A stretch of 64,000 nucleotides of DNA from Kofleriaceae bacterium (GCA_965215005.1 CBDCCZ010000054.1:64001-128000), one strand, 5' to 3'; counted from the first letter of the stretch, positions 2,848 to 30,454 are shown. The notes: generated from the sequence alone by a model not told the origin. A program made the numbers and translations.

Positions 2848-3444
2848 GTGCAAGGTCCCATCGAGCGTCTGGTCCAGCACCTCGCGCGGCTACCTGGCGT
2901 AGGCGAAAAGACTGCTACGCGATTGGCGTTTCACATCGTGCGCAGCCCTAAGGCGCACGCGCGCGATCTCGCCACCGCACTCCTCGATGTTGTCGACCGC
3001 ATCCGGCTTTGCTCGGTATGCGCCAACATCACCGAAGCCGATCCGTGCTCGGTGTGCACCGACGGACGCCGTGACGGCAGTCAGATCTGCGTCGTCGCAA
3101 ACCCCTCCGACCTAGTCGCCATCGATCGCTCTGGTCACTTTCGCGGGCGATTTCACGTGCTCCACGGACTGCTCTCACCCCTGGAGGGGATAGGGCCCGA
3201 AGACCTGCGCATCGACGAGCTTCTCACGCGCCTGGAGAGCCAGGAATCCAGCGTTGCCGAGATCATTCTCGCCACGGCGGCGAGCGTCGAGGGCGAGGCC
3301 ACAGCCATGTATCTGGCCCGGCTCATCAAACCGCTGGGGGTGGCGGTGAGTCGCATTGCCAGCGGCATACCGGTGGGAGGGGAGCTCGAATACTCTGATC
3401 AAGCGACGATTGCCCGCGCGATCGATGGCCGTGCACGAATGTAG
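2848..3444 (+). CDS. recR: Recombination mediator RecR
   Basis: HhH LPGVGEKTA, Cys4 zinc finger, TOPRIM with EGEATA, GIPVGGELEY. Confidence 0.97.
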   Translation: MQGPIERLVQHLARLPGVGEKTATRLAFHIVRSPKAHARDLATALLDVVDRIRLCSVCANITEADPCSVCTDGRRDGSQICVVANPSDLVAIDRSGHFRGRFHVLHGLLSPLEGIGPEDLRIDELLTRLESQESSVAEIILATAASVEGEATAMYLARLIKPLGVAVSRIASGIPVGGELEYSDQATIARAIDGRARM

Positions 3445-3610
3445 GTCCGTTGACTTCGGAGTCCGTTGCTATCTCGAGACCCGGCAGCCGCATAATTGCC
3501 TGGAAAGGTTGAACGAATCAGGAGCGCCTGTTAGCGTCAGTCGGTACGCGAAGCAGGCGTTACTGCTTCGTCGGTTCGGATCGTTAGCGGCGTCAAGGAG
3601 CCTCGAGGAC

Positions 3611-4090
3611 ATGGGGAACCAGCTGGTCATGTACGAAGAGGAGCTGCAGCAGATCAATGCGGTCTGCGAAGTGCTCCATCGGGACTCGAACGCCAAGGCG
3701 GTTCTCGTCATCGACAAAAACGGGCAAGCCATCGCGCAGGCCGGCGACGTCGATCACATCGACGTCACCTCTCTCTCCTCGCTAACCGCTGGCAACGTTG
3801 CGGCCACCGGCGGTATTGCCAACCTTCTCGAGGAGAAGGAGTTTGCCGGACAGTTCCACGAGGGCGAGCGGACCAACGTTCACATATCCATCGTCGCGGG
3901 GCGCGTCATCTTGCTGGTGCTGTTCGACGAGCGGTCTTCGCTCGGTTTGGTGCGGCTCCGCGTGAAAAAGGCCACCGGCGAGCTAACCTCTGTGCTCGAG
4001 GCGCTGGTGCAGAAGAGTCAGTCGGGTTCTCAACCGTCGGTGTTCGCGGAGATCACCGATGATGACATCGACAACCTCTTCAACGATTAG
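3611..4090 (+). CDS. mglB: MglB roadblock/LC7 GTPase-activating protein
   Basis: MGNQLVMYEEE...SLTAGNVAATGG...SSLGLVRLRVKKA...ITDDDIDNLF; GAGG before ATG 3611; directly upstream of mglA. Confidence 0.95.
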   Translation: MGNQLVMYEEELQQINAVCEVLHRDSNAKAVLVIDKNGQAIAQAGDVDHIDVTSLSSLTAGNVAATGGIANLLEEKEFAGQFHEGERTNVHISIVAGRVILLVLFDERSSLGLVRLRVKKATGELTSVLEALVQKSQSGSQPSVFAEITDDDIDNLFND

Positions 4091-4108
4091 GCGCGCTGAG
4101 ACACTCGC

Positions 4109-4696
4109 ATGAGCTTCATCAACTACTCATCTCGCGAGATCAACTGCAAGATCGTCTATTACGGTCCGGGTCTGTGCGGCAAGACCACCAACCTGCAGTA
4201 CATCTACAACAAGACCAACCCGGAGGCGAAGGGCAAGATGATTTCCCTCGCCACGGAAACCGAGCGGACGTTGTTCTTCGATTTCTTGCCGTTGTCGCTC
4301 GGCGAGATCCGCGGCTTCAAGACCCGCTTTCACCTCTACACCGTGCCCGGCCAGGTGTTCTACGATGCGAGCCGCAAGCTCATCCTCAAGGGCGTCGACG
4401 GCGTGGTGTTCGTGGCCGACTCGCAGATCGAGCGCATGGAAGCCAACATCGAGTCGCTCGACAACCTGCGCACCAACCTCGCAGAGCAGGGCTATGACCT
4501 CGACAAGCTTCCCTACGTCGTGCAGTTCAACAAGCGTGATTTGCCCAATGCATCGCCGCTTGCTGAGCTACAAGAGGTACTAAATCCCACCAACGTGGCC
4601 AGCTTCGAAGCAGTGGCCACCAAGGGCTCGGGCGTATTCGACACCCTCAAGGCGGTGGCCAAGCTGGTGCTGACGGAGCTCAAGAAAGGCGGCTAA
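4109..4696 (+). CDS. mglA: MglA small Ras-like GTPase (motility polarity)
   Basis: [37 protein letters not shown]. Confidence 0.98.
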
Positions 4697-12333: not shown

Positions 12334-13917
12334 TCAGCGTGCCGGCGCAAGCTCATACTTTTGCACCAGGCGGATGAGGTTGCGGCGAGAGATCTTGAGC
12401 TCGGCCGAGGCTCGGGTCTTGTTCCACTTGTTGCGCTCGAGAGCCTCGAAGATCATCCGCCGTTCGAGACCTTTCACCGCCTCGGGAAGCGAGTCTGAGC
12501 GAATCAGGGCGCTGCTACTATCGCCCCGTTGGCGCTGCTCGCGAATTCGCATCGACAGCAGCGACGGACCGATGGTCGCCTCGTCGCCCGATAGCACCAC
12601 GAGTCGCTCGACCTCGTTCTCGAGCTCACGGACGTTGCCCGGCCACCCATACGACAACAGCAGCTGCTTACACTCGGTTGAGAGGCGCTTGCTCTTGCCA
12701 TGACGAGCATGCTTCTCGAGAAAGTGCTCGAACAAGATCTCGATATCCTCGCGGCGCTCACGCAGCGGAGGAATCAACAGGTTGATTACGTTGATGCGGT
12801 AGTAGAGATCCTCGCGGAACTCTCCGCGGTCAACCATGCCTTTGAGGTCGCGATTGGTCGCAGCGATGATGCGCACGTCGACCTGGCGCATCTCGGTGTC
12901 GCCCACCGGCGTAAAGGTGCCCTCTTGCAGAACCCGCAATACTTTCACTTGCAAGGCGGGCGACATATCGCCGATCTCATCGAGAAAGAACGTCCCCTGA
13001 TCGGCGACCTCAAAGAGCCCCTGCTTATCGGCGATGGCGCCGGTGAATGCGCCGCGGGTATGCCCAAAGAGCTCCGAATCGAGAAGGTTGTCGTTGAACG
13101 CCGAGCAGTTCGTCACGATGAAACGCCGCGTCTTGCGCGGTGAGTTGAAGTGAATGGCGCGCGCGACCAGCTCTTTACCGGTGCCGTTTTCACCTTGAAT
13201 GAGCACCGTGGAGTCTGAGAGCACCACGCGATCCAAGATGCTGTAGAGGTCTTGCATCGGCCCGGACCTGCCGATGATGGCGTCGTAGCTGTAGCGGGTC
13301 GCGAACTCTTCTTCGAGGCCGGCCGCGCTCTGGCGCACCACCGGTGCGGCGACGTTGGCGACCTCGAGGGCGGCTTCGCGCACCAGCTCGGCCACGTAGG
13401 AGAGATCGCGCTCGTCGAGCCATGGGTGCTCATCGCGTGCGGCTAGATATTCGGCCGGTGCCAGCGCCAACGATGCGGTGCGGTGATCGACCATTGCAAA
13501 GGCGGCGCTGTGGTTGATGCCTCCGGCGACGAAGAAGCCGCCGCACAAGAGCGCGCCGTGCACCCGACCATCGATGACGATCGGCGCTGCCAGCTCGGTG
13601 AGGCCGGCGTGGCAACCTATGCGAATCGGCTCGACGGAGGGCTCGCCGTCGCTGTTGCGGGCAGCCTCGATCAGCCGCCGGATGGTCTCACCCGCACTCG
13701 CCTGGCAGGCGCGCTCGCCCGCTTCGCGGTCGCCGATGACCTGGCACAAACCACGCGGGCCGGCGTGATGGCTGGTTCGAGGCGGGCGCCGCTCACCGCT
13801 GGCTGCATCGACATACCCAAACCCCAAGCGCCAGCGTCGGCTGGCGATCTTCGCCACCTTCTTGACGACATGAAGCTGGAGCAATTCGCTCCATGGAAGG
13901 CCGGATCGCGGAGGCAA
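12334..13917 (-). CDS. Sigma54 enhancer-binding protein with N-terminal PocR-like sensor
   Basis: [28 protein letters not shown], Fis HTH; N-terminal C..CHAGL..AAPI pattern. TTG 13917 after GGAG is a tentative start. Confidence 0.85.
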   Translation of the reverse strand: MPPRSGLPWSELLQLHVVKKVAKIASRRWRLGFGYVDAASGERRPPRTSHHAGPRGLCQVIGDREAGERACQASAGETIRRLIEAARNSDGEPSVEPIRIGCHAGLTELAAPIVIDGRVHGALLCGGFFVAGGINHSAAFAMVDHRTASLALAPAEYLAARDEHPWLDERDLSYVAELVREAALEVANVAAPVVRQSAAGLEEEFATRYSYDAIIGRSGPMQDLYSILDRVVLSDSTVLIQGENGTGKELVARAIHFNSPRKTRRFIVTNCSAFNDNLLDSELFGHTRGAFTGAIADKQGLFEVADQGTFFLDEIGDMSPALQVKVLRVLQEGTFTPVGDTEMRQVDVRIIAATNRDLKGMVDRGEFREDLYYRINVINLLIPPLRERREDIEILFEHFLEKHARHGKSKRLSTECKQLLLSYGWPGNVRELENEVERLVVLSGDEATIGPSLLSMRIREQRQRGDSSSALIRSDSLPEAVKGLERRMIFEALERNKWNKTRASAELKISRRNLIRLVQKYELAPAR

Positions 13918-14008
13918 GGCTCCAGAGCGTGACAAGGAGTCACACCAAAAGCAAGCGCCCGGCTGCAATTGCGGCGCGCCGCTCGCGTCCGCGCGAGAGC
14001 GAGCGCGG

Positions 14009-14665
14009 CTACGGCGGTAAGTCGACCGCGTGTCGCAAGGCGGCGCGGTTCTCCGCCCAGGCGGCGTCATCTTCCATGAACGGCACCTCGAGAGTGACAA
14101 CTTCGAGACCGCGGTCCACGCCGTACTTCGAGCCAAGCGAGCCTGGCGTTGCGTAGCCGATGTCGGCGGAGGCGCCGTAGCCGTTGTGTGCGGCCATCTC
14201 TTCGGCGAGCGCTTGGCCGGCGCCGTCCCAGTTGACGGTGCGAAACGGCTGGTGAATCGCCAGGAGCCGCCGTGGAGTAACGCGCTCGATGAGCGCCGTG
14301 AGTGCCTCGACCTCGGGCTCGGACTCCGGCGCAAGGCCTGGCCGATAACCGGCCTTGTGCTGCGCAGTCCAATTGCGCGCGGCGAAGTTGCGGTTCAGGT
14401 CCACGTCGTTGGCGTTGTTCTTGGTGCCTGCAGCGAGGCCATCGCCGTTGAGCGCAAAGATGATCCACGTGTCGCGGCCGGGCGGCCGCTCGATCAGCTC
14501 CTCGGCCAGTCGCAGAAGCAGCACCGCGCCAATGGGCTCATCGCCGTGAATGGCGCCAAACAAGATCGCGGGGTCGCGAGGGCGAGCGTAGCTCGGAGGC
14601 GCAAAGTGCACCGCGGTGATTGGCCGTCCCAGGACCGTGGTGCCGATGTCTAGCTCGCGCCTCAG
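14009..14665 (-). CDS. mpaA: M14 zinc carboxypeptidase, murein peptide amidase A-like
   Basis: IHGDE, NGDG, NANDVDLNRNF, SEPE, GYATPGSLG, TLE. Start inferred at CTG 14665. Confidence 0.8.
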   Translation of the reverse strand: MRRELDIGTTVLGRPITAVHFAPPSYARPRDPAILFGAIHGDEPIGAVLLLRLAEELIERPPGRDTWIIFALNGDGLAAGTKNNANDVDLNRNFAARNWTAQHKAGYRPGLAPESEPEVEALTALIERVTPRRLLAIHQPFRTVNWDGAGQALAEEMAAHNGYGASADIGYATPGSLGSKYGVDRGLEVVTLEVPFMEDDAAWAENRAALRHAVDLPP

Positions 14666-17811: not shown

Positions 17812-19653
17812 ATGGACGAACGCAGCACCTCAAAGCGCAAAGGGAGCGGCCTTCTATGGCTGCTCGTGTTGGTCGCGGTCCTACTCGTGTGGTGGTACTG
17901 GCGGCCCGATGCAAATCGCGCGGTCGCTGCCTCCGACGATGCTGCCGACCGCTATGCCGATCCCGACGATATCCTCGTCGATATGGTCGATGACGTCGAT
18001 GCAGACGCCATTGCCGCCATCGAGCGCGAGCTGAATATCGAGCTCGTTCTGGTCTCGGACCAATCCTTCGACGAGCGCTTTTATCGCGCTCACGTCGAGC
18101 CCCAGCGGCGCGACGCGGTGCTCGCCGCGCTCTCCAAGAGCGGGCTGGTCGAGATTGCCGAGCCCGATGCCACGGTCTCGCTCTGGCCTTCGGAGACCTT
18201 TCGTGCACCCGCGGTGCATGATGGTTCTGGCTATCCCAACGATCCCCTCTACAAGCACCAGTGGCACCTCGACCAGATTCGCATGCCCGCGGCGTGGAAG
18301 CTTGCCGATGGCAATGGCGTCATCGTTGCCGTGCTCGATACCGGCGTGGCGTTTCAGACCCGCGAACGGTTCCACCGCGTTGAAGACTTAAACGGTGTCT
18401 CCTTCGTCAAGCCCTTCAACTTCGTCAACAACGATACGTTTGCCGAAGACGACCACGGTCACGGCACCCACGTGGCTGGCACCATTGCGCAGGTCACCAA
18501 CAACGGCATCGGCGTGGCCGGCGTAGCGCGCAACGTGAAAATCATGCCGCTCAAGGTGCTGAGCGGCTCGGGCTCCGGCTCGGTGGGCGGCATCGCCGAT
18601 GCTATCCGCTACGCGGCCGATGAAGGCGCCAAAGTCATCAACATGAGCTTGGGCGGTCGGTTTCCGTCGCGCGTGCTCAAGAAGGCTGTTGAGTACGCCC
18701 ACAGCAAAGGCGTGACGGTGGTGTGCGCGGCCGGCAACGAGAGCCGCGGCAAGGTTGGCTATCCCGCTGCCTATCCCGGGGCAGTGGCGGTGTCGGCCAC
18801 CCAGTTCGACGAAGCCACCACCTTCTACTCCAACTATGGCGTCGATATCGATATCGCAGCGCCCGGTGGCAACACGCGCATCGACCAAAACGGCGACGGC
18901 ATGCCCGATGGCGTCCTGCAGAACACCATTGCCATTCAAGATCCCAGCAAGAGCGACTATTTCGGCTTTATGGGCACCTCGATGGCGTCTCCGCACGCTG
19001 CGGGCGTGGCTGCCTTGGTGGTTGGCGAAGGCATTACCGACCCAGACGCGGTGGAGCGAATCCTCAAGTCTACGGCCCGCAAGCCGGATCGCCAGCGCTG
19101 GGATCCCGAGCGCTACGGCGCGGGCATCATCGACGCCGAGGCGGCGGTGCTGGCTGCACGGTCGAGCCAGGGCGGCTGGCAGCTACTGCTAGGCCTGCTG
19201 CTCGCGGGCGGGGTTGCCTCGTCGGTGCGCCGGCGCGGGCTTGGGGTAAGGCTCGGTCCGAGTTATCTGGGGGGCGTGATGCTCGGCGCGAGCGGGCTGT
19301 TCTTTCTCCCGTGGCTCGCAGCCGGAATGTCGTCGCTGCCCGGGATTGCGATGCTCACGCACGGCCTGCCGTCGTGGGATCTCGCTGTGCTCGGCGGCCA
19401 GGGCCATGGCAACGCGCTGTTCTTTAGCGCCCTGCTGCCACTCGGGCTGTTGGTGCTCGGGGCCGGCGTGTCTCGCTTGCGCGCGCCGCTGGCCGGTCTG
19501 GCCGTGGGCGTCGCCGGGCATCTCGTGTTTCACTTGGCAGCGCGCGTCACGGACATTCAGTACGTGCCCGGCGTGGGCCTGCTCGATGCGCTCTGGCTGG
19601 CGATGAACGCGCTGGTGTGCGTGGGTGCCGCGATGCTGGTGCTGCGCCGCTAG
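17812..19653 (+). CDS. S8 subtilisin-like serine peptidase with C-terminal multi-TM domain
   Basis: Triad VLDTG, HGTHVAG, GTSMASPH; N-terminal anchor; hydrophobic C-terminus. Confidence 0.92.
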   Translation: MDERSTSKRKGSGLLWLLVLVAVLLVWWYWRPDANRAVAASDDAADRYADPDDILVDMVDDVDADAIAAIERELNIELVLVSDQSFDERFYRAHVEPQRRDAVLAALSKSGLVEIAEPDATVSLWPSETFRAPAVHDGSGYPNDPLYKHQWHLDQIRMPAAWKLADGNGVIVAVLDTGVAFQTRERFHRVEDLNGVSFVKPFNFVNNDTFAEDDHGHGTHVAGTIAQVTNNGIGVAGVARNVKIMPLKVLSGSGSGSVGGIADAIRYAADEGAKVINMSLGGRFPSRVLKKAVEYAHSKGVTVVCAAGNESRGKVGYPAAYPGAVAVSATQFDEATTFYSNYGVDIDIAAPGGNTRIDQNGDGMPDGVLQNTIAIQDPSKSDYFGFMGTSMASPHAAGVAALVVGEGITDPDAVERILKSTARKPDRQRWDPERYGAGIIDAEAAVLAARSSQGGWQLLLGLLLAGGVASSVRRRGLGVRLGPSYLGGVMLGASGLFFLPWLAAGMSSLPGIAMLTHGLPSWDLAVLGGQGHGNALFFSALLPLGLLVLGAGVSRLRAPLAGLAVGVAGHLVFHLAARVTDIQYVPGVGLLDALWLAMNALVCVGAAMLVLRR

Positions 19654-19782
19654 CTTCCCTTCGCCCATTGCAGTTCACGAGAGCCGCGCGACGATGTCAC
19701 GCGGCTCTTCGTGCGCTCGGGCTCGGCGCTGGGGGCTCACGCTCGCCACCATTGGCGCGTGCTTCGCGGTACCGTGCCGCTC

Positions 19783-20280
19783 ATGTCGCCGCATCGTCTG
19801 GTCGTCGAGCGCCAGCAGTTCAAGTTTTCCTGTGCTCACATGACCGTTTTTCCTGACGGCAGCAAAGAGCGCTTGCACGGGCACAACTATCAGGTCGGAA
19901 TCGCCCTCGAGCTGCGCGAGGTGTCGTTTGCGACCATGATTCCCTTCGCCGACCTCAAGGCTGAGCTCGCAGCGCTGTGCGCGGAGTGGAAGGAGTACAC
20001 GTTCCTCGCCGCGAGAAACCCGTACTTCGAGCTCGTGCGTCATGACGACGACGAGGTGGAATTTCGCCTCTGCGGCAAGCGCTACGTGCTGCCTGTGGAA
20101 GACGTCAAGATCTTGCCGCTGGACAACATCTCGGTCGAGCGGCTTGCGGAGCACGTCGCTTCCCTGCTGATCGAGCGGACGCGTCGGGTGTTCGAGCGCG
20201 AGGTGGTTCTGGGCCTCGAGGTGACCGTCACGGAGAGCCCCGGGCAAGGCGCCAGCTGCTATCGACGGCTGCGCGAGTAG
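19783..20280 (+). CDS. 6-pyruvoyl-tetrahydropterin synthase/QueD family
   Basis: FSCAH, LHGHNY, S.E.LA, V.V.ESPG. Confidence 0.85.
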   Translation: MSPHRLVVERQQFKFSCAHMTVFPDGSKERLHGHNYQVGIALELREVSFATMIPFADLKAELAALCAEWKEYTFLAARNPYFELVRHDDDEVEFRLCGKRYVLPVEDVKILPLDNISVERLAEHVASLLIERTRRVFEREVVLGLEVTVTESPGQGASCYRRLRE

Positions 20281-20429
20281 GTCGCTACGACCGGTGGATA
20301 GACCCCGACCTCAGTCCGCGACGCGAGGCCGGGGGAACTGCGACATCTTTGTCAGGGCGGGCCATCGGGAATATGAACGGGTCGCCAGACGTTGCGATTA
20401 GGACCACCCAGGGTCCTAAACGATCACCG

Positions 20430-20466
20430 AAAAATGCGAAAGCCCCCGGCCTGCTGACCGGAGGCT
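20430..20466 (-). terminator. Intrinsic terminator of the candidate sRNA
   Basis: AGCCTCCGGTCAGCAGGCCGGGGGCT hairpin followed by TTCGCATTTTT on the minus strand. Confidence 0.75.
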
Positions 20467-20589
20467 CTCACCCCCAACTCCACGGAAAGTCTAAGAAAAG
20501 GCGCTAACGAAGCTAGTTGAGTAAATCAGTCGAAGTGTAATGAGGGGGCAAAGGCGCGGGCCCGATCGATAGTCGCCCGCTGCCTGCCC
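20430..20589 (-). ncRNA. Candidate sigma54-dependent small RNA (~160 nt)
   Basis: Sigma54 promoter with +1 predicted at the base of a 5' GC hairpin, U-rich middle, intrinsic terminator; no ATG on this strand. Confidence 0.7.
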
Positions 20590-20598
20590 TAAGCCTAG

Positions 20599-20614
20599 AG
20601 CAAGGGACGGGCCA
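20599..20614 (-). promoter_or_regulatory. Sigma54 (-24/-12) promoter
   Basis: TGGCCCG-TCCC-TTGCT, one mismatch to TGGCACG-N4-TTGCW. Confidence 0.8.
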
Positions 20615-20752
20615 CACCTGCTACTCCTCGCAATCTCTTGTGTTTGTCGATCGCCCGTGTTACCGACGGGCTCTGCATGCCCGTCTGAATCGGCGTAGGT
20701 AGGACATCCGTGTCACGGCCGGGCGAGCAGGCGCAACTTTCTGCACAGCCCA

Positions 20753-22411
20753 ATGCCAGAGAACGTTCTTGTCGTGAATGCAGAGGGCCCCGAGACCCGC
20801 GTAGGCGTGGTCCACGAGGGCGTCCTCTCCGAGTACTTCGTCGAGCGCAAGCGCGAGCGAGGCATGGTCGGCAACATCTATCGCGGTCGCGTGACGCGAG
20901 TGTTACCGGGCATGCAAGCCGCCTTTGTGGATCTCGGCCCCACCGTTGAACGCGCCGCGTTCCTGTACGTCGCCGATGTGCTGGGCGCCGCTGACGAGAA
21001 GAAGCACCTCACTGAGGATAGCGACGACTCCAGCGACGACTCCCCCGAGGGCACCGCCTCGCGCATCGTGCGGTCGCGCAAACGCGATGAGAACCGCAAG
21101 ATCGAGGACTTGCTCAAGCCCGGCCAGACGGTGCTCGTGCAGATCGTTAAAGATCCCATCGGTCCCAAAGGCGCGCGGGTTACCGGATATCTGTCGCTGC
21201 CGGGGCGCTACTCGGTGTTCATGCCGGCGATCGACCACATCGGGGTCTCGCGTCGCATCGCCGCGGATGCCGAGCGCAAGCGACTGCGCGACATCGTGAG
21301 GGAGGTCAAGCCCAAGGGCGCCGGGTTCATCTTGCGTACCGCCGCCGAAGCCACCGCCGATGACGAGATTCGCGACGATGTGACCTACTTGGTGCGCCTA
21401 TGGGAAGAGATCATGCGGCGCGAGAAGACCACCAAAGGTCCTGGTCTGGTCTACGCAGATCTCGATTTGGTGCTGCGGACGGTGCGGGATCTTCTGCGGC
21501 ACGACACCACGCACATCTATATCGATGATCCCGACCAGTACGACCGCGCGAAGAAGTTCACGTCGGCGTTCTTGCCGCGCTATGCCGATCGCATCCAGCA
21601 CTACGATGGCCGGCAGGCCATCTTCGATCACTTCGGCATCGAGGCCGAGCTGCGCAGCGCTTCGTCGCGCCGCGTACCGCTCAAATCGGGCGGCTCGTTG
21701 GTGATCGACCAAGGCGAGGCCCTCACCGCGATCGACGTCAACACCGGCAGCTTCGTCGGCAAAGACGATCTCGAGCAGACGGTCACCAAGAACAATCTCG
21801 AAGCCTGCAAAGAGGTCGCTCGTCAGCTTCGGCTGCGCAACATCGGCGGCATCATCGTGATCGACTTCGTCGACATGGACAAAGAGGCCAATCGCAAGAA
21901 GGTCTGGGACGCCTTCAACAAGGCGCTCGAGGGCGACCGCTCGCGCTGCAACGTCACCAAGATCAGCGAGCTCGGGCTGGTAGAAATGACCCGCAAGCGG
22001 ACGCGTGAGTCGCTGTTGCAGCTGCTCACCGAGCCGTGCGCGGCGTGTGATGGCGCTGGCGTGGTCAAGAGCACCACCACGGCGGCGTACGAGATCCTGC
22101 GCGAGGTGCGGCGGCTCGGCAACACCGCCCCGGCGGACGAGATCGACGTCGAGTGCGCGCCACGGGTGGCGGAGCTGCTGCGCAAGTTCGAACGCGATTA
22201 CCTCGACGAGCTCGAGAAGAAGTTCCAAAAGAAGATCGAGATCAAGGGCAACGCGTCGATGCGCGCCGGGCAGTTCAAAGTGGCGGGCCGCGGTGGCGAC
22301 ACCAACGCCGTCGAGCTCGCTGGCGGCAATGGCAAGGCCGGTCGCCGTCGCTCGAGCCGCGGCGGCCGTAAGCGCGGCAAGCCCAAAGACAGCGAAACGC
22401 CAACCAGCTGA
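20753..22411 (+). CDS. rng: Rne/Rng family ribonuclease
   Basis: GNIYRGRVTRVLPGMQAAFVD, IDVNTG, RLRNIGGIIVIDFVDM, CxxC zinc link; short basic tail. Confidence 0.93.
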   Translation: MPENVLVVNAEGPETRVGVVHEGVLSEYFVERKRERGMVGNIYRGRVTRVLPGMQAAFVDLGPTVERAAFLYVADVLGAADEKKHLTEDSDDSSDDSPEGTASRIVRSRKRDENRKIEDLLKPGQTVLVQIVKDPIGPKGARVTGYLSLPGRYSVFMPAIDHIGVSRRIAADAERKRLRDIVREVKPKGAGFILRTAAEATADDEIRDDVTYLVRLWEEIMRREKTTKGPGLVYADLDLVLRTVRDLLRHDTTHIYIDDPDQYDRAKKFTSAFLPRYADRIQHYDGRQAIFDHFGIEAELRSASSRRVPLKSGGSLVIDQGEALTAIDVNTGSFVGKDDLEQTVTKNNLEACKEVARQLRLRNIGGIIVIDFVDMDKEANRKKVWDAFNKALEGDRSRCNVTKISELGLVEMTRKRTRESLLQLLTEPCAACDGAGVVKSTTTAAYEILREVRRLGNTAPADEIDVECAPRVAELLRKFERDYLDELEKKFQKKIEIKGNASMRAGQFKVAGRGGDTNAVELAGGNGKAGRRRSSRGGRKRGKPKDSETPTS

Positions 22412-24300: not shown

Positions 24301-25413
24301 ATGGTAGCCGTTCAAGTTCAATCCGAAGAAATGCGTCGCGTCCTCGACGACGAAGGCAAGGTCCTCCCCGGCGCCAAGCCGCCCGCGATTCCCGAAGACG
24401 ACCTCGTTCGCATCTTCGACACGATGATGATGGTGCGCGTCATGGACGACCGCATGATGCGCCTGCAGCGACAGGGCCGGCTCGGCTTTTATATGAAGTC
24501 GATCGGCGAAGAGGCGAGCCACTTTGCCGTCTACCCGCTGCGCCAGAGCGACTGGGTGTTTCCGAGTTATCGCGAGCCGGGCGCGTTCTTCTGGCGCGGT
24601 TACACCATCGAGACCTTCATCAATCAGTTGTTCGGCAACGTTCGTGATCCCATCAAGGGTCGGCAGATGCCGGTGCATCACAGCTTTCGCGAAGGCAATG
24701 TCGTCTCGATTAGCTCTCCGGTTGGTACGCAGATTCCGCAGGCCGTGGGTGCCGCGCAAGCCGCCAAGATCTCCGGCACCGACGATGTTGCGGTGACCTA
24801 CTTCGGCGAGGGCACCTCGTCTACTGGCGAGTTCCACGTCGCGATGAACTTCGCCGGCGTATGGAAGGCGCCGGTTGTGTTCATCTGTCGCAATAACGGC
24901 TGGGCCATCTCGGTGCCGCTCGAGAAGCAGACCGCTGCCAAGAGCTTTGCTTCCAAGGGCGTTGGCTACGGCATGCCGGGCGTGCTCGTCGATGGCAACG
25001 ACGTGCTGGCCGTGATTGCGGCCTCCAATGAAGCCGTCGAGCGCGCTCGTGCGGGCGACGGCCCAACGCTCATTGAAGCGCGCACCTATCGCGTGCAGGG
25101 ACACTCGAGCTCCGACGATCCGTCGGTGTATCGAGATGCCAACGAGCCGGCGATTTGGGAGCGAAAAGATCCGCTCAAGCGGTTTCGCAACTATCTCAAG
25201 AGTAAAGACGTCTGGTCCGAAGAGCTCGAGAGCTCGATCGTCGAGAAGCACAATCAGGCGATTACCGACGCACTGGCGCAAGCCGAAGAGCTCGGCCCGC
25301 CGCCCCTGGAGACGCTGTTTGACGACGTCTACGAGCACACCACCTGGAACCTTGACGAGCAGCGCGAGTGGTTGCTCGCTCAGGACCGCGTCAAGTCCCC
25401 CCACAGCCACTGA
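24301..25413 (+). CDS. 2-oxoacid dehydrogenase E1 alpha subunit (copy 1; PDH or branched-chain)
   Basis: LQRQGR, KGRQMPVH, GEG...NNGWAIS ThDP motif, HSSSDDPSVYR. Confidence 0.93.
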   Translation: MVAVQVQSEEMRRVLDDEGKVLPGAKPPAIPEDDLVRIFDTMMMVRVMDDRMMRLQRQGRLGFYMKSIGEEASHFAVYPLRQSDWVFPSYREPGAFFWRGYTIETFINQLFGNVRDPIKGRQMPVHHSFREGNVVSISSPVGTQIPQAVGAAQAAKISGTDDVAVTYFGEGTSSTGEFHVAMNFAGVWKAPVVFICRNNGWAISVPLEKQTAAKSFASKGVGYGMPGVLVDGNDVLAVIAASNEAVERARAGDGPTLIEARTYRVQGHSSSDDPSVYRDANEPAIWERKDPLKRFRNYLKSKDVWSEELESSIVEKHNQAITDALAQAEELGPPPLETLFDDVYEHTTWNLDEQREWLLAQDRVKSPHSH

Positions 25414-25506
25414 CCTCGCACTGCGGCTCGTCCGCGCCGCGCGCGTGCGAGCCGAGTAGCGAGTGCTGCGCCGCTTAGACCGCCGCCGGAAACTCAGGAG
25501 CAATCG

Positions 25507-26481
<975 letters not shown>

Positions 26482-26483
26482 CC

Positions 26484-27842
26484 ATGTCGTTCAACTTCCA
26501 TCTGCCCGACATCGGGGAAGGCGTCGTCGAGGGCGAGATCGTGAGCTGGAAGGTCGCGGTTGGCGATCCGATTGCCCTCGATCAGCCCATGGTCGAGGTC
26601 ATGACCGACAAGGCCACGGTCGAGATTCCCGCGCCGCGGGCTGGCACGATCAAACAGATCAACTTCAAAGAGGGCGAAATCTGCCCGGTGGGCGACGTGC
26701 TCGTCGTCATCGAAGAAGCGGGTGGCAAGGCCGCGGGTGGCAAGGCAGTAGCGCCACCGCAGGCGCCGCCGGCCAGCAAGAACGGCAACGGCGCCCATGC
26801 TCCTATGGCGGCGGGTGCCACGAAGGCCGAGCTGCCCACGCCGCCGCGCCAGGACCGCGCTAAGAACCAGCCAATGGCAACTGCTTCGGCCTCGCTCGTC
26901 GATGTCTCGGCGGACCGCCAACGGGTCAAGGCAACGCCGGCAACGCGCCGGTTAGCGCGGCAGATGAGCGTCGACATCACCACGGTCCCCGCGACCGGCA
27001 AACACGGTCGAGTCACCTCTGACGACGTTCGTGGGTTCGCCGAAAACGGCGGCTCGAGCGCCGGTCAAAGCGCCCGCGCTAACGGCGCCGGCTCGGCGCA
27101 AAGTCGAGCATTCGAGCCGCTGCGCATCGAGGACACCGGCGCCGAAGAGCGGGTGCCGCTGCGCGGAATGCGCAAGCGCATCGCCGAGAACATGACCAGG
27201 TCGGTGTTTACCGCCACGCACTTCACCTACGTCGAGGAGGTCGATATGACCGAGCTCGTCGAGGTGCGCGAGCGTGCCAAGAGCCGCGCGCAGGCGCGCG
27301 ATATCAAGCTCACCTATCTGCCGTTCATCGTCAAAGCGATCGTCTCGAACCTGCGCAAGTGGCCGCAGCTCAACGCCTCGCTCGACGAGTCGACCCAGGA
27401 GATCGTTCTCAAAAAGTATTATCACATCGGCATCGCCGCGCAGGGGCCGCAGGGGCTGGCGGTGAGTGTCCTGCGCGACGCTGATCGCCGCTCAATCTTT
27501 GATTTGGCGCAAGAGATTCAGCGGCTCGGCGACGCGGTGCGAACCGGCACCGCCTCACGCGAGGAGCTTACTGGCTCGACCTTCACGATCACCTCCCTCG
27601 GCAAGCTTGGCGGGGTGCTGGCGACGCCGATCATCAACTTCCCCGAGGTGGGAATCGTTGGTGTGCACAAGATGGAGCAGAAGCCCGCCATTCGCGACGG
27701 CGAGATCGTTGCGCGCTGGCTGATGAATCTCTCTATCTCACTCGATCATCGGTTGGTCGACGGCTGGGATGGCGCGATGTTCTTGCAGGACGTCAAGTCG
27801 TTCCTCGAAGACCCCACCACCATGTTCTTGGAGATGGTGTAA
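26484..27842 (+). CDS. Dihydrolipoamide acyltransferase E2
   Basis: One lipoyl domain (TDKA), E3-binding ATPATRRLA, catalytic DHRLVDG. Confidence 0.95.
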   Translation: MSFNFHLPDIGEGVVEGEIVSWKVAVGDPIALDQPMVEVMTDKATVEIPAPRAGTIKQINFKEGEICPVGDVLVVIEEAGGKAAGGKAVAPPQAPPASKNGNGAHAPMAAGATKAELPTPPRQDRAKNQPMATASASLVDVSADRQRVKATPATRRLARQMSVDITTVPATGKHGRVTSDDVRGFAENGGSSAGQSARANGAGSAQSRAFEPLRIEDTGAEERVPLRGMRKRIAENMTRSVFTATHFTYVEEVDMTELVEVRERAKSRAQARDIKLTYLPFIVKAIVSNLRKWPQLNASLDESTQEIVLKKYYHIGIAAQGPQGLAVSVLRDADRRSIFDLAQEIQRLGDAVRTGTASREELTGSTFTITSLGKLGGVLATPIINFPEVGIVGVHKMEQKPAIRDGEIVARWLMNLSISLDHRLVDGWDGAMFLQDVKSFLEDPTTMFLEMV

Positions 27843-29030
27843 ATGGCGGCGCCGACGGTCGCGAGTGGCAAGGGCAAGCCGGCAGCGCGCCCGGCGGCGC
27901 GACGCGGCGCCTTCGCGTATTTCGACAAGAGCCCTGAGGACAAGGCACGCGGGCTGTTTCAGCTCATCGACGAGGATGGTCACGCCAAAGCGGCCGATGT
28001 CGCCGGGGTGAGTGAAACGCTCGCGATGCGTCTCTATCGCGGCATGCTCACCATTCGCGTCACCGACGCTCGAATGATGGCGCTGCAGCGGCAGGGGCGC
28101 ATTGGCTTCTACGGTGAGGCGCTCGGGCAAGAGGCCGCCGTGGTCGGTTCCGCGGCGGCTTCCACGCCCGAAGACTGGATCGTCCCGGCGCTACGCGAGG
28201 CGGGCGTTGGCCTTCTGCGCGGAATGTCCCTTGGCGGCTACATTGCGCAGATCTATGGCAACGGCAACGACGTCACCAAGGGCCGGCAGATGCCCTGCCA
28301 TCCCTGCGATCGCCCAAGCAACTACGTGGTGATGTCATCGTGCGTGTCCACGCAAATTCCCCATGCGGTTGGCATCGCGATGGCCATGAAGCTCTCTGGT
28401 GACGGCGGCAAATGTTGCTTTGGCTACATGGGCGATGGCGGCACCAGCGAAGGCGATTTCCACGTCGCGCTCAACTTCGCAGGCGTGACTGCAGCGCCTG
28501 CGGTGCTGATCTGTCAGAACAACCAATGGGCCATCTCTACGCCGGGCACGGCACAAACCGCGGCTCCGACCATCGCCGTTAAGGGGCTTGGCTATGGCGT
28601 CGAGTCTCTACGTGCAGACGGCAACGACGTGCTCGCGGTTTACGAAGTTTGCAAATACGCTGCAGAGCGCGCTCGACGGGGCGACGGGCCTTCGTTCATC
28701 GAGCTCCTCACCTATCGCGTGAGCGCGCACTCCTCGTCAGATGATCCCTCACGCTATCGCGATGAGACGGTCACGGATGTGTGGAAGCGCAAGCGCGACC
28801 CGCTGGCTAGGCTGCACGCGTTCATGCAAGCTCGCGGATGGATCGATGACAAGCGGCGCGATGAGATGGCCGCTGAGCTCGAGCGCGAGGTGCGCAGCGT
28901 GATCGATTCGCAAGAGAGTGCTGGCAAGCCACCGCTCTCCTCCCTCATCGAAGATGTTTACGAAGAGCCAACTTGGCTGTTGCGCGAGCAGATGGACGAG
29001 CTCGTCCGCTCGCTAGAGGAGAATGACTAA
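27843..29030 (+). CDS. 2-oxoacid dehydrogenase E1 alpha subunit (copy 2)
   Basis: LQRQGR, KGRQMPCH, GDG...NNQWAIS, HSSSDDPSRYR. Confidence 0.93.
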   Translation: MAAPTVASGKGKPAARPAARRGAFAYFDKSPEDKARGLFQLIDEDGHAKAADVAGVSETLAMRLYRGMLTIRVTDARMMALQRQGRIGFYGEALGQEAAVVGSAAASTPEDWIVPALREAGVGLLRGMSLGGYIAQIYGNGNDVTKGRQMPCHPCDRPSNYVVMSSCVSTQIPHAVGIAMAMKLSGDGGKCCFGYMGDGGTSEGDFHVALNFAGVTAAPAVLICQNNQWAISTPGTAQTAAPTIAVKGLGYGVESLRADGNDVLAVYEVCKYAAERARRGDGPSFIELLTYRVSAHSSSDDPSRYRDETVTDVWKRKRDPLARLHAFMQARGWIDDKRRDEMAAELEREVRSVIDSQESAGKPPLSSLIEDVYEEPTWLLREQMDELVRSLEEND

Positions 29031-30454
29031 TGGCAAGCGAGCAGCGAGTCGACTGTGTCGTCATCGGCAGTGGCCCCGGCGGATATCCAACCGGCATCCG
29101 CCTCGGTCAGCTGGGCGTCAAGACCGTGGTGGTCGAGAAGGAATATGCCGGCGGCGTATGTCTCAACGTCGGTTGCATTCCCTCCAAGGCTCTCATTCAC
29201 GCAGCCAAGACCTTCGAGAAGCTCGGGCACTCGGCCGACATGGGAATCCAGGTCAAAGAGGCGCCCGGCGTGGACATGGCCAAGATGCAGGAGTGGAAAT
29301 CCGGCATCGTCAATAAGCTCACCGGCGGCGTCAAGCAGCTGCTCAAAGCGGCGGGCACTGAGCTCGTCATGGGCACCGCCCGTATCGAGAAGGGCGGCGC
29401 CGATGGCCATAAAGTCATCGTCAAAGGCGAGAAGGGCGAAACCACGATTCTAGCCAAGAACGTGGTCATCGCGACCGGCACTCGTCCCATCGAGATTCCC
29501 GGCTTCGAGATCGACCAGAAGCGCGTGCTCGACTCGAGCGGCGGGTTGGCGCTCAGCGAAGTGCCCAAGCGAGTTGTGGTAATCGGCGGCGGCTACATTG
29601 GTCTCGAGCTCGGCACCGTCTACGCCAAGCTTGGCAGCAAGGTCACCGTGGTGGAGGCGTTGCCTTCCGTGCTGTCGGGAATGGAGCCCGAGTGCGTGAA
29701 GGTCGTGGCGCAGAAGCTGCGCAAGATGGGCGTCGAGGTGATGACGGAGGCCAAGGCCAAGTCGTGGCAAGACAAAGGCGATCGCGCGGTGGTCACCGTC
29801 ACCGCCAAAGATGGCAGCGAGGTCACTATCGACACCGACAAGATCTTGTTGTCGGTTGGCCGCCGGCCAAACTCGGAGAACCTTGGCCTCGACGGTCTGG
29901 GAGTCAAGGTCGAGCGTGGCTTCATCAAGGTCGATGAGTTCATGCGAACCAACGTGGCAGGCATCTACGCCATCGGCGACGTGGTCGGCGGCATGATGCT
30001 GGCGCACAAGGCGACCAAGGAAGGCATCACCGTCGCTGAGATCATCGCCGGCCACAGCGCCGCGATGGATGTACGCACCATTCCGGCCGTGGTGTTCACC
30101 GATCCGGAAATCGCTTCCACCGGCATGACCGAGGATCAGGCCAAAGAAGCCGGCTTCAAGAACCTCAAGGTCGGCAAGTTCCCCTTCGCCGCACTGGGAC
30201 GCGCCATGAGTGTCAATGACACCACCGGCTTTGCCAAAATCATCGCGGATGCCGACTCCGGGGAGATTCTCGGCCTGCACATCGTCGGCACCGGCGCCTC
30301 CGATCTCATCAGCGAAGGCGCACTCGCCATCGAGATGGGCGCGGTCCTGCACGACGTAGCCCTGACCATTCATCCGCATCCCACTCTCTCCGAAGCGGTC
30401 ATGGAAGCCGCCCACGTCGCCCTCGGCGAAGCCGTTCACGTTACCCAACGCTGA
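29030..30454 (+). CDS. lpdA: Dihydrolipoamide dehydrogenase E3
   Basis: GGVCLNVGCIPSK, GGGYIGLE, HPHPTLSE. Confidence 0.97.
   Translation: MASEQRVDCVVIGSGPGGYPTGIRLGQLGVKTVVVEKEYAGGVCLNVGCIPSKALIHAAKTFEKLGHSADMGIQVKEAPGVDMAKMQEWKSGIVNKLTGGVKQLLKAAGTELVMGTARIEKGGADGHKVIVKGEKGETTILAKNVVIATGTRPIEIPGFEIDQKRVLDSSGGLALSEVPKRVVVIGGGYIGLELGTVYAKLGSKVTVVEALPSVLSGMEPECVKVVAQKLRKMGVEVMTEAKAKSWQDKGDRAVVTVTAKDGSEVTIDTDKILLSVGRRPNSENLGLDGLGVKVERGFIKVDEFMRTNVAGIYAIGDVVGGMMLAHKATKEGITVAEIIAGHSAAMDVRTIPAVVFTDPEIASTGMTEDQAKEAGFKNLKVGKFPFAALGRAMSVNDTTGFAKIIADADSGEILGLHIVGTGASDLISEGALAIEMGAVLHDVALTIHPHPTLSEAVMEAAHVALGEAVHVTQR

Follow-up and report, generated by a model that had tools for sequence, protein, structure and literature searches.

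What is encoded in the 472-bp spacer between a PTPS/QueD-like gene and an RNase E/G family gene (rng) in a 64-kb stretch of a Kofleriaceae genome (GCA_965215005.1 CBDCCZ010000054.1:64001-128000)? The whole 64-kb stretch is called the window here, coordinates are positions in it, and the RNA features lie on its minus strand. The original prediction for this spacer was an unannotated, possibly new regulatory small RNA (sRNA) driven by a sigma-54 promoter and divergent from RNase E/G. The analysis supports that proposal, in that a promoter, a terminator and an RNA with no open reading frame (ORF) are conserved together in related genomes, and on these sequence grounds the spacer very probably contains a real gene, a conserved non-coding RNA gene of the sigma-54 type. 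The complete predicted unit consists of a palindrome at about -121, a block resembling an integration host factor (IHF) site at about -50, the promoter, a hairpin, a single-stranded tract and a terminator (Table 1). Beside RNase E/G, the unit is conserved across an entire family of Myxococcota-type genomes and also in certain families close to it.

The elements described in the original prediction were recovered in the window. The near-consensus -24/-12 promoter has GG at -25/-24 and GC at -13/-12, which places the predicted +1 at about 20588 and, as had been claimed, at the base of a hairpin. The fold of 166 nt had an energy of -69.1 kcal/mol (z = -2.9), and one of 200 shuffled sequences folded as well. 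The middle of the RNA had been described as U-rich and unusual for this GC-rich DNA; the 56 nt from 20545 to 20490 contain 38% U and 12% G, with 41% G+C versus 64% in the window. The tract carries the UAG motifs CTAGCT (20516-20511), GTTAGC (approximately 20507-20502) and CTTAGA (approximately 20495-20490). The terminator hairpin with its T tail was also confirmed, and comprises a stem of 16 pairs, 10 of them G-C, followed by ATTTTT. The sequence next to the terminator, CCGTGGAGTTGGGGGTGA, is identical in the window and in loci L002 and L004, and is present in L003 with a one-base deletion (L denotes an inspected locus, g a genus code and f a family code). An AGTTGG core is common to the window, where it lies inside CCGUGGAGUUGGGGGUGA (20485-20468), and to genus g14 (TTAGTTGGTCT).

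The 159-nt transcript contains no ATG, as originally stated, and no ORF of at least 20 amino acids starts inside it. A small peptide was rejected as an explanation, given the lack of an ATG and reading frames that shift with loop length between relatives. Readings on the plus strand, as a 3' untranslated region (UTR) or terminator of the PTPS gene or as a bidirectional terminator, were also rejected, since no plus-strand U-run follows the hairpin and loci without PTPS also conserve the element.

Table 1. Predicted RNA gene, its control elements and the genes discussed, in window coordinates.
Feature	Position	Strand	Description
Predicted small RNA	20430-20588	-	~159 nt; sigma-54 +1 to end of terminator U-run
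Sigma-54 (-24/-12) promoter TGGCCCGTCCCTTGCT	20614-20599	-	Element present in every related locus inspected
5' stem-loop SL1, GGGCAGGCAGCGGGC...GCCCGCGCCTTTGCCC	20589-20546	-	GC-rich; predicted +1 at its first base
G-poor, U/C-rich single-stranded tract	20472-20545	-	Defined by composition and UAG motifs
Conserved CCGTGGAGTTGGGGGTGA	20468-20485	-	Directly 5' of terminator stem, reaching 4 nt into it; candidate seed
Intrinsic terminator	20430-20471	-	Stem 20471-20436, U-run 20434-20430
Conserved ACAAGAGATTG block	20631-20641	-	Between enhancer and promoter, ~-50; IHF-like
Conserved GGTAACACG block	20656-20664	-	GGTA, CA and G invariant in alignments A3/A4
Inverted repeat GACACGGATGTC	20703-20714	.	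Candidate enhancer (upstream activator site); centre ~-121 from +1
Conserved block CAGAAAGTTGCG	20732-20743	-	Just upstream of rng start; CGCAACTTTCTG in rng mRNA sense
Second palindrome copy GACAAAGATGTC	20342-20353	.	77 nt beyond U-run; no gene starts there
RNase E/G family gene (rng)	20753-22411	+	552 aa; PF10150 E = 4e-104, PF20833; divergent neighbour
PTPS/QueD-like gene	19711-20280	+	Convergent with RNA
Sigma-54 activator (PocR sensor + AAA+ + HTH_8)	12334-14334	-	Pfam domains; nearest activator, 6 kb from RNA

The BLAST comparison that had been suggested returned related loci. Among 40 related genomes, three, including one from another family, gave blastn matches to the 3' part of the RNA (20427-20499) with 84-88% identity, and two more matched the promoter part; all of these loci have TGGC-N7-TTGC on the strand of the conserved terminator and 140-330 nt upstream of it. 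A model built from the 3' domain of the RNA (R1) matched 11 of 138 family genomes, including one false positive by inspection, and 12 of 147 in the order, which indicates that the 3' domain diverges quickly. A second, sequence-only model (R2), covering 157 bases that begin just ahead of the RNase E/G start and run through the sigma-54 promoter, matched 121/138 family genomes, 67/73 of the high-quality ones and 13/17 genera. Leaving out two genomes flagged as unpublished, on which no other claim rests, the count was 119/136. A fourteenth genus, g2, was missed by R2 and has the unit as judged by R1 and inspection. Beyond the order, weak but full-length R2 matches were present in 14 genomes of the class sample (29/151 in all). 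Five of these were inspected, and the loci in families f22 and f30 show the same layout of RNase E/G, palindrome, consensus sigma-54 promoter, UAG-containing RNA (motif CUUAGUUAGUUAG in f22 and UUCUAGUUUGG in f30) and terminator. One of the other three is cut by a contig end, one has the enhancer and promoter with a different RNA, and one drives a protein gene. Outside the class, R2 gave only three weak matches in 151 genomes, in which the palindrome and a sigma-54-like promoter (with an imperfect -12 element in two of the three) precede protein genes or a different short RNA. A scan of genome contigs with a 15-base motif was discarded, as its 118 loci were all chance 15-mers.

RNase E/G is the constant neighbour of the unit across the related loci, in the divergent position that had been reported for the window. 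It is also the only such gene found in the window's genome, with a single match in an assembly that is 93% complete. The downstream neighbour differs, and is a convergent PTPS gene in the window, g16 and g18, a secreted protein in g7 and another convergent gene in f22.

For analysis of the RNA itself, 67 homologous RNAs were extracted, one per genome with a near-duplicate left out; these sequences, like the compared genomes in general, are one another's kin and not independent. They are 95-281 nt long (median 136). A hairpin followed by a U-run forms the 3' end in 66/67, the exception being a mis-set end, and 58/67 have a 5' hairpin (-10 kcal/mol or lower) that begins in the first 12 nt. At least one YUAGYY motif occurs in 66/67 RNAs and at least two in 50/67. 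The total of 137 motifs is approximately six-fold that of shuffled sequences (22 ± 4.6, with a maximum of 32 in 200 shuffles).

In g14, the largest genus, the 34 sequences (alignment A5) are comprised of SL1, a second stem-loop (SL2), a single-stranded core and the terminator. The UAGUUGG core is invariant or nearly so, and SL2, as judged by eye only, varies in sequence from locus to locus yet stays paired and has UAAG in its loop. The SL1 and terminator pairs were 97.1% paired, compared to 89.6% in column shuffles, and compensatory changes were present in 11 of 18 pairs, compared to 4.5 in shuffles and no more than six in slid registers. None of 500 shuffles reached the paired fraction or the compensatory count, and the covariation in g14 is, as judged from this alignment, the product of selection on RNA structure. 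The window's RNA has SL1, the UAG motifs, the AGUUGG core and the terminator as in g14, without SL2. The loops of SL1 and of the terminator in g14 both read UUGCCG, which is invariant in 34/34 terminators (loci L158-L215); the g6 5' hairpin carries GUGCCG. The twin UUGCCG loops could serve as a protein or kissing-loop site. A further variant was seen in L133 (genome G043, approximately 1346-1590), where the RNA is 245 nt long and has long CCT repeats (CCUCCU..., resembling an anti-Shine-Dalgarno sequence) between the UAG motifs.

Upstream of the +1, five conserved blocks were identified in ten loci (alignments A3/A4), in the order CAGAAAGTTGCG by the RNase E/G start, GACA-N4-TGTC, GGTAnCAyG, AnACAAGnGATTGC and the sigma-54 element. 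Of 70 loci, 69 have the GACA-N4-TGTC palindrome, and 68 have it centred 94-97 bp upstream from the T in TGGC. A position of about -121 is a usual distance for an enhancer. The motif TGACANNNATGTC has only 7 sites in the window's 6.2-Mb genome, two of which are in this spacer. Just one other place in the genome pairs the palindrome with a sigma-54 element at similar spacing (110 bp, versus 100 bp here by the same measure), at approximately 22130-22870 of contig C38 (locus L237 8127-8868, minus strand). The palindrome there is perfect (GCTGACACCGATGTCAGC), and the gene behind the promoter encodes a 210-aa secreted protein with no Pfam match, which is probably a second regulon member of the same activator. 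The palindrome also precedes sigma-54 promoters of protein genes in other classes. As it accompanies sigma-54 promoters independently of RNase E/G, it is read as the binding site of an activator and is most likely the enhancer of that activator. The GCTGACACCGATGTCAGC site has a queC gene approximately 2 kb away and the RNA in the window a QueD/PTPS-like neighbour, perhaps by coincidence.

Between enhancer and promoter, the ACAAGAGATTG block has ACAAG, T and GC invariant in the ten loci of A3/A4, and similar blocks precede the sigma-54 promoters of L234 and L235, which do not adjoin rng. The ACAAGnGATTG block carries CAA-N4-TTG, which we take to be the core of the IHF consensus, and it may be a candidate IHF site. 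The GGTAACACG block may belong to an IHF footprint or to the rng promoter. The CAGAAAGTTGCG block, conserved in A3/A4 and in loci of other families, is probably an element of the rng leader or ribosome-binding region. A sigma-70 promoter scan of 19500-21500 found none, so that the rng promoter is unplaced. The second palindrome copy beyond the terminator has counterparts, likewise after the terminator, in three g16 loci (L132, L152 and L153), and no sigma-54 element was found at enhancer distance on either side of it in the window. A short hairpin (GGACC...GGTCC, 20400-20415) lies between the RNA terminator and this second copy, with a U-run after it on neither strand.

Sigma-54 itself (RpoN) is encoded once in the window's genome (PF04552, E = 5e-64). 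The closest activator gene, of the PocR type, has its best orthologue 6.5-27 kb from the RNA locus in 4/5 related genomes. Orthologues (60-72% identity) were also present in 5/5 genomes missed by R2, so there is no presence/absence signal for this protein. Its candidacy as the cognate activator is weak, and its proximity may reflect conserved gene order and nothing more. Matches to sigma-54 activators numbered roughly 60-80 each in four of the five related genomes searched and 41 in the fifth.

The proposed mechanism is that a sigma-54 activator bound at the palindrome would turn the RNA on upon a signal, and that the RNA would then act in trans, the exposed YUAG/AGUUGG tract by the terminator base-pairing with target mRNAs. 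Several enterobacterial sRNAs are processed to shorter forms, and here the adjacent RNase E/G may first cleave the A/U-rich UAG-UU tract. Where the next gene is a ThrE-like exporter, read-through of the terminator could make the RNA the leader of the exporter mRNA. A stand-alone, trans-acting regulator is favoured because the unit is kept in many lineages with no close gene on the same strand. Action in trans by base pairing is, considered separately, a tentative proposal that falls a little short of probable. The statement as a whole, of an independent RNA gene of ~159 nt that is switched by an activator and acts in trans through the YUAG/AGUUGG tract, appears reasonably probable.

Several observations weigh against this proposal. 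The +1, the 3' end and the expression of the RNA are predictions from sequence. The promoter match TGGCCCGTCCCTTGCT is the sole match to TGGC-N7-TTGCW in the window on both strands; the chance expectation is 1.25 per window, at least one match occurred in 74/100 shuffles, and the match in the window, taken alone, is within chance and not significant, although conservation among the relatives puts the arrangement as a whole far beyond chance. Because the compared genomes are related, the counts given above overstate the independent support. Perfect complementarity of 9-12 nt between the RNA and 3722 crudely predicted start regions was not above that of shuffled RNA (45 versus 62 9-mers, and 12 versus 13.6 10-mers), and no candidate target emerged. 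Pairing of the RNA with its own rng leader had an energy below the shuffled mean in only 9/31 loci, as calculated by full-length duplexfold, which is a poor tool for such pairing. Searches of the 93%-complete genome for Hfq, ProQ and CsrA were negative, which leaves no known sRNA chaperone available.

A further point against a stand-alone RNA, and one absent from the original prediction, is the gene that follows it in many related genera. A ThrE/DUF1212-like gene (LHRYGTPAHRLEE motif) comes next on the same strand in 25/34 g14 and 3/3 g15 loci, in at least 5/12 g6 loci (with approximately 200 nt downstream covered) and in at least 1/2 g9 loci. In L166 (g14), the sole locus in which the start codon was located, the GTG start lies 30 nt after the U-run. 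This gap leaves no room for a separate promoter, so transcription of the ThrE-like gene there must come from read-through or begin inside the RNA gene. The RNA could thus act in cis, as the leader or attenuator of a ThrE/DUF1212-type exporter gene transcribed from the sigma-54 promoter, its terminator being a regulated stop (riboswitch-like or protein-controlled). The leader role is the main rival and a serious one in the genera with the exporter gene, where that gene stands close behind the terminator. It would also give a setting for CGG, just past the U-run (20429-20427), which is conserved throughout and can pair with CCG or UCGAA 5' of the terminator stem. This pairing is relevant in read-through transcripts only, and the conservation of CGG is unaccounted for if the RNA ends in the U-run. 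However, no ThrE-like gene was present within 420 nt in 16 loci sampled from 12 other groups (g1, g2, g3, g7, g8, g10, g12, g13, g16, g17, g18 and f22; for the g3 locus, 125 nt downstream only). In several groups the next gene is convergent, yet the promoter, motifs and terminator are kept. In the window, where PTPS is convergent, the RNA lies outside the 5' UTR of any gene that it might regulate, a position that it does have in many related genera. The terminator is strong (12-16 pairs and a U-run), and a conserved alternative, antiterminator pairing was not evident in the A2/A5 alignments or the consensus folds, with no dedicated search. In the window's genome (G000), 50 kb separate the RNA from the ThrE-like gene, whose upstream region is unrelated and contains no such RNA. 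To extend the leader role to this genome, the exporter would have moved away and left the leader orphaned or re-used. The leader explanation, with this extension included, is considered unlikely.

The RNA could instead be a sponge or decoy that titrates a protein, its YUAG motifs and the g14 UUGCCG loops binding an RNA-binding protein or RNase E/G; CsrB/RsmZ, CrcZ and GlmY are precedents. This would agree with the two or more YUAGYY motifs in 50/67 RNAs and a motif number that rises with RNA length (five in the 281-nt L005). It would likewise agree with the UUGCCG that is invariant in the g14 terminator loops (34/34) and present in most SL1 loops, with the linkage to the only RNase E/G gene, and with the failure to find the known base-pairing chaperones. 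However, there is no known candidate for the binding protein, the window's RNA has one strict YTAGYY motif and two looser ones, and the motif differs by genus (UAGCUU, UAGUUA and UAGUCU), which fits drifting seeds equally. A sponge or decoy is judged to be quite unlikely.

A combined arrangement is also conceivable. With the enhancer approximately 45 bp ahead of the start codon of RNase E/G, a bound activator could act on that gene too, and a single activator might turn on the RNA and hinder RNase E/G, the UAG-UU tract being an RNase E/G substrate or decoy and the same promoter feeding the ThrE-type exporter by read-through in most genera. If true, this would be a two-way switch on global RNA decay, with RNA turnover tied to an amino-acid or metabolite signal, but it is regarded as improbable. 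Finally, that the DNA merely controls rng, with the sigma-54 promoter modulating it (by interference or an activator roadblock) and the transcript a functionless by-product, is very improbable: the link to rng is the most constant feature and an activator bound that close to its start codon could hinder rng transcription, but the RNA stems covary, conserved and enriched motifs lie within the transcribed DNA, 66/67 loci retain a strong terminator dedicated to the RNA, and the palindrome and sigma-54 pair drives ordinary genes elsewhere.

Other features were noted in the window and its genome. A tRNA with a long variable arm (49-133) and the signal recognition particle (SRP) RNA (164-258) lie directly upstream of dnaX (323-2485), in the usual ffs-dnaX arrangement. 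A Roadblock/LC7 protein followed by a small Ras/Arf-like GTPase (3356-4696) forms an mglB-mglA-like pair, as in Myxococcota-type genomes. A cluster for a 2-oxoacid dehydrogenase complex (24301-30454; E1 alpha, E1 beta and E2, then E3) comes after the RNase E/G gene and a gene with a DnaJ domain. The window's genome has 15 MYXO-CTERM matches over the cut-off, compared to none in 14 control genomes, and 35 TIGR02266 matches, five of them over the cut-off; the Acidobacteria-type ADOP family had none over the cut-off. All three results agree with a Myxococcota origin.

To place the RNA among known families, the window was searched with Rfam. At gathering scores, only the tRNA and the SRP RNA at 49-258 were found. 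A cmscan of 20250-20800 up to E = 10 gave no family; a cyanobacterial S1 leader at E = 1.4 is noise (17 bits, against a cut-off of 39.9 bits). Apart from that tRNA and SRP RNA, no model for rne5, the RNase E 5' UTR element, or for other housekeeping RNAs matched in the window. The RNA is thus new to the catalogue and not a housekeeping RNA, the identity that the original prediction had wished to see checked. The literature consulted, largely at abstract level, held nothing on a sigma-54 sRNA beside RNase G in myxobacteria, and in the myxobacterial sRNA literature searched to the same depth, Pxr was the only sRNA featured. The present RNA would represent a second, far more widespread enhancer-dependent RNA family, with a defined promoter, enhancer site and conserved core. 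Its pairing with the sole RNase E/G gene, and often with a ThrE-type exporter, leads to concrete hypotheses on control. If it acts in trans where Hfq, ProQ and CsrA appear absent, it would bear on how sRNAs act without known chaperones.

Sigma-54-driven sRNAs are an established kind, including Pxr, Qrr, GlmY, CrcZ and NrsZ, and the finding is solid and not surprising in kind. The generic features of such sRNAs, namely the promoter spacing, an activator site, rpoN and an ORF-less unit ended by a terminator, are present here at the sequence level. GlmY and GlmZ of the Enterobacteriaceae (controlled by GlrR/QseF) have a sigma-54 promoter, activator sites of the TGTC/GACA type and an IHF site; RNase E cleaves GlmZ, with GlmY serving as a decoy. 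Their tie to RNase E is functional, whereas the tie to RNase E/G here is a conserved gene linkage. Their sites are TGTC-N10-GACA in three copies, in contrast to a single GACA-N4-TGTC at -121, and the present RNA has no Rfam match and no glmS context. Qrr1-4 (LuxO), CrcZ (CbrB) and NrsZ (NtrC) comprise an enhancer, a sigma-54 promoter, a short ORF-less RNA and a terminator, with repeated short single-stranded motifs in CrcZ, and they depend on Hfq. The likeness to these RNAs is in the kind of unit; there is no sequence or model similarity, the motifs differ, and Hfq was not found here.

The original prediction had compared the RNA to Pxr as an analogue, without established homology, and the comparison stands in that form. 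Pxr, from Myxococcus and related Cystobacterineae, and the present RNA share a sigma-54-type promoter, an upstream activator site, a multi-stem-loop RNA, a terminator and a Myxococcota-type host. The Pxr model RF01812 (gathering score 80 bits) had no match in the window, in the spacer up to E = 10 or in 12 related loci up to E = 1, and a direct search, run with no positive control, matched 0/151 genomes including that of the window. The published 26-nt Pxr probe (PMC5568312), allowing up to two mismatches, was found in 0/301 genomes of the phylum sample. Pxr is flanked by nla19, a sigma-54 response regulator gene, and by an NADH dehydrogenase gene (PMC5568312), whereas this RNA lies beside RNase E/G and varying genes, PTPS in the window. 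Pxr is 108 nt long with three stem-loops, in contrast to the 95-281 nt and YUAG tract of this family. A long form of Pxr is processed to a short form (PMC5568312, PMC10217877), and processing of the present RNA is proposed by analogy. By the RF01812 model and the defining gene neighbourhood, the RNA falls outside the Pxr family. The likeness to Pxr is one of kind only, and the RNA is best read as a new family of a known kind, the sigma-54-dependent regulatory sRNAs.

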